From a phage, in the sequence record PZ295659.1: a DNA stretch of 64,000 nt; one strand, 5' to 3'. Position 1 is the first letter of the stretch; the number at the start of each line of letters is the position of its first letter. The position numbers and the translations under genes are program-made. The notes under the pieces are model-generated. The model searched no databases and had not been told where the DNA came from. It saw only the letters and a program-made list of their open reading frames with translations. Of this stretch, positions 54,007 through 56,648 are shown one piece after another.

Positions 54007-54243
54007 TTATAGTGTTCCATATACTCGAGTTGCTTCAACAAGACCATCACTGCCTAATTTAAGATTAGTAATTTGGTCACCATCTTTAGGATTAACGATT
54101 ATGAGAAAAGAACGTGGAGATTCTTGAATAACTCGTAATGTTGCATCCTGGAAACGTTCAGACACTTTATTGATGAGTGCTTGAGCGAATTCTTTTACTT
54201 TAATCTGAAATTCGTGTACTGTAATTGGATTTTCACTTAGCAT
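54007..54243 (-). CDS. hypothetical protein (78 aa)
   Basis: ORF with early promoter upstream. Confidence 0.55.
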   Translation of the reverse strand: MLSENPITVHEFQIKVKEFAQALINKVSERFQDATLRVIQESPRSFLIIVNPKDGDQITNLKLGSDGLVEATRVYGTL

Positions 54244-54270
54244 TTCGATTTCCTCATTTTAGTAGAGTTA

Positions 54271-54300
54271 ATCATATCACAACTCTACTGTGTTGTAAAC
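54271..54300 (-). promoter_or_regulatory. early promoter with inverted repeat (AGTAGAGTT / AACTCTACT)
   Basis: GTTTAC ... TATGAT. Confidence 0.55.
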
Positions 54301-54576
54301 TTAAATTGCAAAACATTTAATTTCTTGTGAATCGAAATCAACTTCACATTGAATTACTAGATCAGCGTCAAGTCCAAACACAACAATCACATGAGCCGAG
54401 CTTGGCAACAGTGTAACAGACACAGAATCCACTTGGTCCGGGACCAGAGTATTCAAAACGTAAAGTAGTTCAGAGTGGACCTTAAGCTCAGTAGCCGTAT
54501 CCGGCTTATCAAAGAAATGATTTGCGATAATCTGACTAAAAACTACCTTTACAATTTCAGAATATTTAGGGAACAT
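54301..54576 (-). CDS. hypothetical protein (91 aa)
   Basis: ORF. Confidence 0.5.
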   Translation of the reverse strand: MFPKYSEIVKVVFSQIIANHFFDKPDTATELKVHSELLYVLNTLVPDQVDSVSVTLLPSSAHVIVVFGLDADLVIQCEVDFDSQEIKCFAI

Positions 54577-54583
54577 AATTACC

Positions 54584-54808
54584 TCAGTGTACAGTATTTA
54601 CTTTAACTCGAACAACAAATTGCTCGGTCGGTTCACCTACAGGAACAAACTCTACATGATATTCACCTTTGTAACGAGTATTCAGGTCGTTACGAATTTC
54701 GGTAAGCTTGTTGATTAATGTAGAACTCATATTAAGTCCCACTAGTTTACGAAGCATTTTGTATGCTTCATCTTCGATTTCATGATGTTTATCGTACATA
54801 GTTTTCAT
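54584..54808 (-). CDS. hypothetical protein (74 aa)
   Basis: ORF. Confidence 0.5.
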   Translation of the reverse strand: MKTMYDKHHEIEDEAYKMLRKLVGLNMSSTLINKLTEIRNDLNTRYKGEYHVEFVPVGEPTEQFVVRVKVNTVH

Positions 54809-54980
54809 TTAACCATTCAATTGCCTGGTCGACGTTATCAAATATACCGCCGTCCAAACGTTCTTCATGCTCATAGTCCAGCACATCAATACCGAACTGT
54901 CCATTTACTAAAGGCCAGGCTACAAACAAATATTCTTTATGCTGTTCGATGGCCTCAATCACTTCATATAATCGTTTCAT
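54789..54980 (-). CDS. hypothetical protein (63 aa)
   Basis: ORF coupled to pseT. Confidence 0.5.
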   Translation of the reverse strand: MKRLYEVIEAIEQHKEYLFVAWPLVNGQFGIDVLDYEHEERLDGGIFDNVDQAIEWLNENYVR

Positions 54981-55879
54981 TAAAAATCGCCATGGTTAAC
55001 TTGCCAACATTCTAAACCAATACGACGCCACATTTCCACAACCTGGTTACGGTCATCAACGGCCAATTTCACATCATAATAAGGAGCAATACAGTTCCAA
55101 AAGAGTTCTTCCTTAACAACATCATCCTTACGAGTGTCACCTTGATTACGTTGAATATGCATTTCCCATGGAATAGAAAACGTGTCCATCCATTTTTTAG
55201 TTGCTTCGTAATAACACATTGAATCTTCTTTAGTTCCAGATTCACGACCGCTTACAGTAATAATTGTATACCCGGCCTGATGAAGCATCTTAACATATTC
55301 GACAACCATAGGGTTTGGCTCATCCGTAGACAGTTTATCCAACTCATAAGGCCCGCGAGCAACATGTAGAGCTAAAGTCCCGTCAAGGTCGAAGATAACC
55401 GCTTTAGGTTTACCCGGAGTTCCTTTATAAACCGGAAGTCCTTTGTATTCACGCATACGAGAATACATCGAACGTAGAACATCGATAGGAACGGCCTTTG
55501 TGCCACGCTTGGCATTACGTTTAACCAATTCGGTCCACGGAACATCGAACACTTGATATATAACTTCATGACCCCACTGTTTAGCGTATTCTTCCCAGAC
55601 AAGACGACGTTCAGGATTTAAGTTGGTGTCAGAAATAATAACACCCTTAGTTCCATCTTGACAGAGAATCATATGTGCCGCATCGTGTTGCATATAAGTT
55701 ACGATACTTTCTTTCTTTTTAGTATATTTGTACTCGTCACGTTCTTCGTGGCCCATGATGGATTGGCGATAATCGTCGCGGTTGATATTAAAGAACCCAG
55801 GATTCTTAGCAATAAATTCACGAGCCCAAGTGCTTTTACCAGACCCAGGACAACCTACAGTCAAAATAATCTTTTTCAT
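54980..55879 (-). CDS. pseT: polynucleotide 5'-kinase / 3'-phosphatase
   Basis: 299 aa; P-loop GCPGSGKST; HAD-like DLDGTL phosphatase motif; strong match to T4 Pnk. Confidence 0.95.
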
Positions 55880-56067
55880 AGTTTTACTACCTCTTCAGCA
55901 AATTCAAATTGTCCACCAAGAATTTTAGCAATTTCACGTCCTAGTTCAGCACCTTTCTTGCAATCTTGCATAGTCCAAGAATCACCATTCTGTGATTTAC
56001 GAAGAGCCCGTGTATTGATATCTGCTACAAGTGTATGGATTAACTTATCGATTTTTGCTTGGTCCAT
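55876..56067 (-). CDS. hypothetical protein (63 aa)
   Basis: ORF coupled to pseT. Confidence 0.5.
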
Positions 56068-56366
56068 TATTTTATTCCTAAGAAAGTTTCAAGAATACGA
56101 ATGTTATGCTCGCGCCGATCTTTGTTAATTTCAGCAACGTTTTTATTAATTGACGTACTTCTAACGTTTGAAGAAATAAATTTAATCATATGGCTTTTGA
56201 GTTGTTGCAAATCTAACCCTTTTTCTTTAGCAGCTTTACGAAGAGCTTTACCTGCTTCATCTAGTGCCTTTGCTGCATCTTTGTCATAATCACCAAGTGA
56301 CATTCCACGGCAGATGTCAATATACTCATCAGACCGTTTGATGTAATTCTCTAGTAATGTTTTCAT
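56067..56366 (-). CDS. hypothetical early protein (99 aa)
   Basis: ORF with consensus early promoter (GTTTAC-N18-TATAAT). Confidence 0.55.
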   Translation of the reverse strand: MKTLLENYIKRSDEYIDICRGMSLGDYDKDAAKALDEAGKALRKAAKEKGLDLQQLKSHMIKFISSNVRSTSINKNVAEINKDRREHNIRILETFLGIK

Positions 56367-56394
56367 TTAGATTTCCTCAATTATCCATAGGAGC

Positions 56395-56424
56395 ATTATA
56401 CTCTGCTCCCGAGAGTTTGTAAAC
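56395..56424 (-). promoter_or_regulatory. early promoter GTTTAC-N18-TATAAT with inverted repeat (GGGAGCA / TGCTCC)
   Basis: motif. Confidence 0.65.
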
Positions 56425-56648
56425 TATTTTACTAAAGATTCAATATACTCATGAAGAGCTTTAGTCGCTACTGCCCACTTATTCTGATATTCATTTTTCA
56501 GATTAGCACGAGACTGAACTAACAAGCGGTCGTTAGTCGGAGGCAAAGACTCTAATCGTTGAATCTGACGGCCATAAATCATAGCCGCCATTTCAGAGTC
56601 ATAGATAAGTCCTTTAAGGTATTCATGCTGTTCTTTAGTCATTGACAT
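56424..56648 (-). CDS. hypothetical protein (74 aa)
   Basis: ORF. Confidence 0.5.
   Translation of the reverse strand: MSMTKEQHEYLKGLIYDSEMAAMIYGRQIQRLESLPPTNDRLLVQSRANLKNEYQNKWAVATKALHEYIESLVK

Follow-up and report, generated by a model that had tools for sequence, protein, structure and literature searches.

We analyzed a 64,000-nt stretch of phage DNA (sequence record PZ295659.1; hereafter the window, meaning this whole stretch) at positions 54,007–56,648, where seven small open reading frames (ORFs) flank pseT, the gene for polynucleotide kinase/phosphatase. Four of them (78, 91, 74, and 63 amino acids, aa) lie between a DAHP synthase gene and pseT, and three (63, 99, and 74 aa) between pseT and the o-spanin gene, at the coordinates and lengths given in an earlier reading of the letters alone (hereafter the original prediction; Table 1). 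All genes of the region are on the minus strand and are thus transcribed toward lower coordinates. Along its entire length, the 6-kb stretch around the seven ORFs is 97–98% identical to Escherichia phages PHB12, AV112, AV113, AV117, ST2, and Bas46 (ChristianSchoenbein), among others; about 120 sequenced phages reach this level of identity, and at least 80% of the stretch is covered by one match in 150 phage records. By the taxonomy of these near-identical phages, the window phage belongs to the genus Mosigvirus, i.e., it is an RB69-like T-even phage. We conclude that the locus is very probably the ordinary cd–pseT–alc early block of such a phage, composed of genuine small genes arranged in three early units, with promoter cassettes resembling the PeSL cassettes known from T4-type phages.

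Table 1 Features of the region around pseT in the window (positions count from the first letter of the window; pI, isoelectric point; percentages are protein identities).
Feature	Position	Strand	Description
DAHP synthase gene	52894–53886	−	Flank of the small ORFs
DAHP synthase module	52898–53991	−	Slot of T4 cd.1; Pfam DAHP_synth_1, E 5.5e-75
cd.2 orthologue	54007–54243	−	78 aa; Pfam DUF7320; 65% to T4 Cd.2, 96% to RB69
Cassette P1	54244–54300	−	Early promoter, 9-bp inverted repeat (54261–54269, 54281–54289) around the −10, Shine-Dalgarno TGAGGAAATC, cd.2 ATG
Early promoter P1	54271–54300	−	TTTACA, 17-nt spacer, TATGAT with TG; 10/12 matches
cd.3 orthologue	54301–54576	−	91 aa; pI 4.4 (acidic); Pfam DUF7355
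RB69ORF227c-family gene	54584–54808	−	74-aa ORF; 95% to RB69 protein
cd.4 orthologue	54789–54980	−	63 aa; pI 4.3 (acidic); 52% to T4 Cd.4 over 63 aa (E 1.5e-26), 100% to RB69
pseT	54980–55879	−	Polynucleotide kinase/phosphatase; 75% to T4 PseT, 97% to RB69; conserved anchor of the region
RB69ORF230c-family gene	55876–56067	−	63 aa; 100% to RB69 protein
RB69ORF231c-family gene	56067–56366	−	99 aa; pI 9.4 (basic); 96–97% to RB69
Cassette P2	56367–56423	−	Early promoter, inverted repeat GGAGCA/TGCTCC (56390–56409) around the −10, Shine-Dalgarno TGAGGAAATC, ATG
Early promoter P2	56395–56424	−	TTTACA, 17-nt spacer, TATAAT; 11/12 matches
pseT.1 orthologue	56424–56648	−	74-aa ORF; 82% to T4 PseT.1 (E 1.7e-39), 96–97% to RB69
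o-spanin gene (pseT.2)	56639–56929	−	Flank of the small ORFs
Third early promoter	57801–57830	−	rnlA–alc gap; GTTTAC-N18-TACTAT; conserved in RB69

The seven ORFs are genuine small protein genes under purifying selection. When compared with orthologues 40–95% identical to them, their ratios of non-synonymous to synonymous substitution rates (dN/dS) range from 0.05 to 0.35, with synonymous sites near saturation, and the values for pseT (0.11) and cd (0.16) fall in the same range. A reading of some of these ORFs as chance open frames in AT-rich spacer DNA could draw on their modest lengths (63–99 aa) and on the lack of a clear Shine-Dalgarno before the 227c-family gene and cd.4. It is nevertheless hardly credible in view of the low dN/dS at saturated synonymous change, the conservation of length and position across genera, and the near absence of non-coding DNA between the ORFs, and it is refuted for the four genes with T4 orthologues, whose T4 proteins have been detected.

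These four genes can be assigned, from profile matches and synteny, as positional orthologues of T4 cd.2, cd.3, cd.4, and pseT.1. They agree with their T4 counterparts in position, order, length, and strand, share 52–82% protein identity with them, and fall into PHROGs 1504, 1695, 2360, and 2347, respectively; an early promoter between cd.3 and cd.2 is likewise common to T4 and the window. The 78-aa ORF matches Pfam DUF7320 (E 1.5e-35; 121.5 bits, cutoff 27) and occupies the cd.2 slot between cd.3 and cd or cd.1, and the 91-aa ORF matches DUF7355 (E 1.2e-33) and lies upstream of the cd.3/cd.2 early promoter. The 63-aa ORF at 54789 matches PHROG 2360 (E 2e-33) and adjoins the pseT stop codon, in the place of cd.4, while the spanin-proximal 74-aa ORF, a member of PHROG 2347 (function unknown) with a dN/dS of 0.05 against T4, overlaps the stop codon of pseT.2, the o-spanin gene, as expected of pseT.1. 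The start of PseT.1 is most likely the second ATG (56642), which would yield a protein of 72 aa with an ATGA overlap at the spanin stop. T4 differs in carrying cd.1 and cd.5, both absent from the window region. The statement in the original prediction that none of the ORFs has a recognizable motif thus holds with respect to function, but two of them do match named Pfam families.

Within this set, the cd.3 gene of the window phage is a divergent allele. Its product is 62% identical to T4 Cd.3, 68% to that of RB69, and 99% to that of PHB12. Two cd.3 alleles are found in Mosigvirus, one in the window phage and PHB12 and the other in RB69 and an IMG/VR contig (L132), and the corresponding proteins are 68% identical, vs. 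95–100% for the neighboring genes. At the DNA level, identity between the window and RB69 is 60–78% over ~54240–54540 and 93–100% in the flanks. This divergent stretch runs from the P1 cassette into cd.3, with one edge inside P1.

The remaining three ORFs can be placed, by similar evidence, in the RB69ORF227c, 230c, and 231c families, which T4 lacks in this region. All three have full-length PHROG matches (3609, 8683, and 2364, with E 6.5e-40, 2.2e-42, and 6.8e-49, respectively), and their RB69 counterparts are 95–100% identical and occupy equivalent places. The 231c family is the same family as RB32ORF217c and JS98 ORF217c. A tblastn search limited to the 128–146 kb part of T4 returned no match for any of the three RB69ORF genes; “RB69ORF” names designate ORFs without a T4 match (PMC1524935), and it is on this “novel ORF” definition of Nolan et al. 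that their absence from the entire T4 genome relies. Hence only four of the seven ORFs have T4 orthologues in place (cd.2, cd.3, cd.4, pseT.1). The comparison also confirmed the statement, in the original prediction, that T4 has only pseT.1 between pseT.2 and pseT. The 99-aa and 74-aa ORFs had been proposed on this basis as additional cargo: the former indeed has no T4 counterpart, but the latter is the PseT.1 orthologue, and the genes upstream of pseT that T4 lacks are instead the 99-aa and 63-aa ORFs, the third T4-lacking gene being the 74-aa ORF between cd.4 and cd.3. Nor are these genes an addition peculiar to this phage, as they are already catalogued as RB69 ORF227c, 230c, and 231c, are fixed in ~150 Mosigvirus genomes, and are also found in further T-even genera. 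All seven small genes are in fact fixed in Mosigvirus across these ~150 genomes, at 90–100% identity.

Two gene starts in this set deserve revision. The product of the 227c-family gene is probably 71 aa long and starts at Met4 (54799). RB69ORF231c is annotated as 78 aa, in contrast with the 99 aa of the window ORF, but the full 99-aa frame is present in RB69 (locus L004, 11317–11616) with its own Shine-Dalgarno and a conserved P2 promoter, and the deposited start is probably too far downstream. We also considered ORF227c as a diverged T4 Cd.5 or Cd.1; with hhalign probabilities of 0.3–1.3%, this was rejected.

The three families differ in their reach. Members of the 231c family were found in 709 phage records, including most Tequatrovirus relatives of T4 (e.g., wV7, RB10, and Bas40), where the gene overlaps pseT.1 upstream and pseT downstream, as well as in Gaprivervirus VR7 and, at 40% identity, in Yersinia phage MHG19. 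A profile of the family searched against 1.84 billion representatives recovered only five clusters, without remote relatives, and the family is therefore confined to these T-even phages. The 230c family (242 phage records; dN/dS 0.08–0.19) adjoins pseT outside Mosigvirus too, on a Karamvirus-like contig (L151). Its homologue in Klebsiella phage JD18 (Jiaodavirus) is a free-standing ORF between motA and asiA (L008, 3001–3180), while in Moabite, a jumbo phage of Serratia, the family makes up the C-terminal third of a 158-aa protein (L009, 2177–2653). Because the core motif of ORF230c (LVxDINTRAL...QNG..WT..DCKKGA..GR) thus recurs in an unrelated jumbo phage protein and in a separate Jiaodavirus ORF, the family represents a small mobile domain shared beyond T-even phages. 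Finally, the 227c family was detected in 338 phage records from several genera.

We next consider expression. P1 and P2 are the best sigma-70 matches of the region, and the exact TATAAT read at the P2 site was confirmed along with both promoter positions. A generic sigma-70 scan of the region showed no enrichment (17 sites vs. 18.2 expected), but the T4-type early pattern GTTTAC-N17-19-TAYDAT has nine matches in the window, all on the minus strand, vs. 0.38 expected. Both promoters display the features of T4-type early promoters, namely GTTTAC, a spacer of 17 ± 1 nt, TAnnAT, the proper orientation, and a Shine-Dalgarno. A TG one base before the −10 hexamer is seen in P1 and not in P2, and the upstream DNA is AT-rich but coding. 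P1 is moreover the orthologue of T4 early promoter Pe133295, annotated between cd.3 and cd.2 in the T4 record. The third early promoter, in the rnlA–alc gap, is followed by GAGGAG and an alc ATG at 57770. The longest alc ORF (57270–57833, 187 aa) spans this promoter; the real start is the ATG at 57770 behind the GAGGAG, and the resulting Alc has 166 aa, as in the annotation of relatives. Neither MotA-box middle promoters nor late promoters were found in 52000–59500.

While P1 and P2 had been described as heading two islets, each in fact lies inside one, and together with the promoter before alc they delimit three units. The first, from 57801–57830, would comprise alc, pseT.3, pseT.2, and pseT.1; the second, from P2, ORF231c, ORF230c, pseT, cd.4, ORF227c, and cd.3; and the third, from P1, cd.2, the DAHP synthase gene, and cd and onwards. 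The genes are tightly packed: alc, the two spanin genes, and pseT.1 are consecutive with overlapping stops and starts, and junctions inside units are overlaps or gaps of at most 7 nt, with almost no non-coding DNA. P2 starts on the final base of the stop codon of pseT.1, and P1 directly adjoins the stop codon of cd.3. Host RNA polymerase would be expected to read all three units immediately after infection. We infer the actual transcription starts in the window phage from its sequence, and immediate-early initiation at P1 is indicated indirectly by the Pe133295 annotation and the early RNA of T4 cd.2. The RNA and protein classes of a T4 time course fit this layout, with Cd.2 and PseT.1 showing early RNA and early protein, and Cd.3, Cd.4, and PseT early RNA and middle-class protein (PMC9697503, supplements 4 and 6).

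P1 and P2 are each embedded in a short cassette of the same build: the stop codon of the preceding gene, then GTTTACA, an inverted repeat whose loop encloses the −10 hexamer, and finally TGAGGAAATC followed by G or T and AAATG. The core Shine-Dalgarno of both is GAGGAAA, and within the 64-kb window the ten-base string TGAGGAAATC occurs only at the P1 and P2 sites. Of the two hairpin arms, the 5′ one falls within the −35/−10 spacer, and the 3′ one immediately follows the −10 hexamer. These cassettes resemble the PeSL cassettes of T4-type phages (Arbiol et al. 2010, PMC2839356; Comeau et al. 2014, PMC4122927), in which a promoter is combined with a stem-loop, and which attenuate upstream read-through and act as recombination joints for small-ORF swaps in hyperplastic regions; terminator activity and mini-circles were assayed there with reporter fusions and inverse PCR in RB49 and phi1 (PMC2839356, PMC4122927). 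P1 and P2 share with them a short intergenic layout in which a promoter of the TTTACW-N17-TAYWAT type, preceded by AT-rich DNA, is combined with a stem-loop, a Shine-Dalgarno, and an ATG, as well as a location in a variable region and the occurrence of one cassette before different ORFs in related phages. P1 and P2 both contain the complete composite of promoter, stem-loop, Shine-Dalgarno, and ATG in a short spacer. They differ from PeSL cassettes in having no intergenic DNA upstream of the −35, which adjoins a stop codon. By analogy, the hairpins may attenuate read-through from upstream.

The association of PeSL cassettes with ORF replacement is also seen here, for 239c- and 231c-family ORFs at P2, for cd.2 and 232c-family ORFs at P1, and in the edge of the cd.3 allele inside P1. 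RB69 has the same P2 cassette sequence as the window. In Gaprivervirus and Dhakavirus-like loci, P2 is 97% identical and the 231c proteins are 56–58% identical to that of the window; there, P2 precedes either a 239c-family or a 231c-family ORF (L142 vs. L143, the 231c-family ORF following directly in L143). Tequatrovirus phages have no P2; in them, the 231c-family gene overlaps pseT.1. The ORF that follows P1 is cd.2 in Mosigvirus and T4, and a member of the 232c family in other T-even phages. Downstream of cd.3 in L142 and L143, we observed a P1 equivalent in which a Gaprivervirus-type spacer palindrome precedes a lone 3′ arm (gaccttacc) from the Dhakavirus-type hairpin; this hybrid-looking arrangement suggests a crossover inside the cassette. 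Elsewhere in the window, an 11-bp stem (TTGGTACAGGT/ACCTGTACCAA) surrounds the −10 of a site at 50267–50295, an example of a subclass of T-even early promoters whose −10 sits in the loop of a perfect hairpin and which is also present in T-even loci L132–L172, and the promoters at 43947, 57801, and 58985 have a small spacer-internal palindrome instead.

To place the locus among its relatives, we used 80 pseT loci from IMG/VR, of which the 42 T-even-like ones are the basis of all slot counts. These 42 loci share a fixed backbone of alc, pseT.3, pseT.2, slot A, pseT, slot B, cd, and 31.1, and in the two slots gene families are patchily present with a constant relative order. Slot A holds pseT.1 in 13 loci, the ~160-aa 239c family in 27, 231c in 17, and 230c in 2. 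Slot B holds cd.5 in 13, cd.4 in 17, 227c in 23 (always between cd.4 or cd.5 and cd.3), cd.3 in 27, the 232c family in 13, cd.2 in 32, cd.1 in 22, and DAHP synthase in 8. The cd–pseT region is a textbook hyperplastic region, and the original view of a variable accessory region of T-even phages with T4-type early promoters holds.

RB69 lacks exactly the DAHP synthase module, with homology to the window picking up again on both sides, and the module is flanked by a short direct repeat, TAATGA[A/G]AGC, with one copy where cd.2 ends and the other where cd begins, which reads as the signature of an insertion or deletion via microhomology. The eight loci with DAHP synthase in this slot come from several genera, with 59–97% identity. 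Between cd.2 and the DAHP synthase gene, a 41-aa ORF (53895–54020, minus strand) is annotated in Bas46, PHB12, and AV110; the window copy has a stop at codon 6 (GAG to TAG) and no in-frame ATG downstream, so that this ORF would be either dispensable or no gene. In VR7, a mobE-like nuclease gene on the opposite strand lies between pseT and cd.4 and overlaps the 3′ end of pseT (L010, 2525–3250); true mobile nucleases therefore invade the region in some lineages.

Such invasions bear on the 99-aa ORF of the 231c family, which is labeled “putative homing endonuclease” in the BASEL phages Bas46 and Bas40. An origin as a homing endonuclease or its remnant would be in line with this label and with mobile nuclease genes elsewhere in the region, as in VR7. 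However, no nuclease family in Pfam, NCBIfam, or PHROGs matches the protein, the full length is under purifying selection across genera, and the gene is found at a fixed position in 17 of 17 carrier loci with the evolutionary pace of its neighbors, unlike a mobile gene. With neither a nuclease catalytic domain of the HNH, GIY-YIG, LAGLIDADG, PD-(D/E)xK, or a similar type nor a sporadic distribution among otherwise identical genomes detected, the label is unsupported, and the homing endonuclease reading is very improbable.

The distribution of the 231c family indicates that its presence is the common state upstream of pseT and that T4 is the exception. In wV7, the 231c/217c-family gene and pseT both start with ATGAAAA, and a comparison of the T4 pseT.1/pseT junction (L003, 6885–6932) with wV7 (L005, 2478–2525 and 2777–2824) fits a deletion between these two starts. 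The loss of this gene in T4 looks like a precise deletion between the ATGAAAA repeats.

This attachment of the gene to the start of pseT could also be explained if the 231c-family protein worked together with PseT, either in RNA repair or against anticodon nucleases, with ORF230c joining in Mosigvirus. Of the 17 carrier loci, 16 lie outside Mosigvirus, and in all of these the 231c family adjoins the pseT start codon; they include Tequatrovirus, Gaprivervirus, Dhakavirus-like, and more distantly related lineages, with identities as low as 40%. The protein is basic (Table 1), its family is restricted to T-even phages, and the ORF230c family adjoins pseT in two genera. Yet T-even genomes are strongly syntenic, and adjacency is expected by descent alone; T4 PseT works without a 231c gene, in an arrangement resembling a simple deletion; 25 of the 42 T-even loci with pseT are without the 231c family; the predicted four-helix fold is generic; and the JD18 homologue of ORF230c lies away from pseT. 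We thus regard a partnership with PseT as improbable. Its more specific form, in which 231c and the Mosigvirus 230c would be an unrecognized accessory factor of PseT/RnlA RNA-repair counter-defence, e.g., an anticodon-nuclease inhibitor or decoy, seems quite improbable as well; such a role would have escaped notice since the classical studies all used T4, a phage without the 231c gene. Adjacency is all that connects 231c with PseT.

Several observations weigh against our reading of the locus as an ordinary early block with PeSL-like cassettes and small early proteins. As single sequences, the hairpins are only modestly more stable than shuffles (z −2.1 and −1.4). Covariation does support the P1 stem, as in eight variants of P1, 72 of 72 cells of the 9-bp stem pair and four of nine pairs change on both sides, vs. 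20–57% pairing when the partner is slid by 1–3 columns, but these variants amount to about four independent sequence types. Similarly, a perfect stem of at least 6 bp brackets the −10 in 22.6% of 84 early-promoter-like sites (window and T-even loci) vs. 3.1% in shuffles, an enrichment that is indicative only, given the relatedness of these loci. In the window, the −10 is enclosed by the stem, whereas the PST/T4 stem-loop lies just upstream of the promoter. As for function, all seven proteins were scanned with Pfam and PHROGs, where every match was to a family of unknown function, and with NCBIfam and PADLOC, which gave no hits; sequence searches of four of the seven against the PDB gave nothing meaningful, and two AlphaFold2 (AF2) models, with predicted local distance difference test (pLDDT) scores of 78 and 87, had only generic or uncharacterized fold matches.

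Further functional searches gave a similar picture. The AF2 model of ORF227c (pLDDT 87) has an alpha-alpha-beta-beta arrangement for which fold searches were uninformative, and the 231c-family protein has a predicted four-helix fold of a generic kind. No catalytic motifs were found in the seven proteins; Pfam scans of Moabite gp325, the VR7ORF239c family, and the JD18 neighbors returned nothing; word-based homologue searches recovered close relatives only; and no functional study was found in the literature on pseT.1, the cd.x genes, or the DUF names. The seven proteins are most likely small, non-enzymatic early binders of host or phage macromolecules, dispensable on laboratory hosts. This proposed mechanism is argued from class membership, as reviewed for uncharacterized early genes in the non-essential regions of T4 (PMC2988021). 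Characterized small T-even early proteins with known function act by binding a host protein: T4 55.2 inhibits topoisomerase I (PMC4396842), and Emp/Gp94 of Mosigvirus AV110 binds MreBCD (bioRxiv 10.64898/2026.09.14.751387). Both resemble the window proteins in being small, early, encoded in accessory regions, and free of enzymatic motifs, but the window proteins have no sequence or fold similarity to either.

A stronger claim would be that one or more of the seven small genes encode a dedicated counter-defence or host-shutoff factor, such as an inhibitor of restriction, abortive infection, or toxin–antitoxin systems, the islets thus carrying arms-race cargo. Early expression, predicted here and shown in T4, is consistent with this, as are the small size and lack of enzymatic motifs of the proteins, the acidity of Cd.3 and Cd.4 (pI 4.4 and 4.3), the patchiness of the families across T-even genera, the location of the ORF230c family in different variable regions depending on the genus, and the replacement of the cd.3 allele within Mosigvirus. 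On the other hand, the seven genes are fixed in ~150 Mosigvirus genomes and conserved there at 95–100%, with variation only in the cd.3 alleles, dN/dS is low with no diversifying selection seen, and no similarity to any characterized protein was found. A screen of 45 early proteins of AV110 identified six growth inhibitors, Gp94, 135, 204, 208, 214, and 263 (bioRxiv 10.64898/2026.09.14.751387). Judging by protein accession order, with MotA as Gp95, the present region corresponds to AV110 Gp53–60, so that none of the six would come from it. The 45 proteins tested may not include those of this region, such as Cd.2 and PseT.1, however, and its three non-T4 genes could not have been chosen, being outside the T4-guided selection of that screen. 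Overall, a dedicated counter-defence or host-shutoff factor is possible but doubtful, and the host-takeover or anti-defence role initially suggested for these islets is a generic expectation, with no support here for any particular ORF. The original prediction is thus partly supported: its observation was correct, and its interpretation partly right in spirit and wrong in detail.

The genes, promoters, and variability of this region are already known from the 2006 genome paper on RB69, where Nolan et al. listed “novel ORFs” of this phage along with early promoters for them (PMC1524935), and from the 2010 and 2014 publications on PeSL cassettes; ~150 deposited phage genomes hold the same sequence. 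The practical value of reading the locus as an ordinary Mosigvirus early block lies in annotation, i.e., in the assignment of ORFs to T4 genes, the probable transcription units, the unfounded “homing endonuclease” label, and the too-short RB69ORF231c. For T-even phages more broadly, T4 is atypical in the slot upstream of pseT, and because T4-based screens are blind to the 231c, 230c, and 227c families, host-interaction screens should include them.

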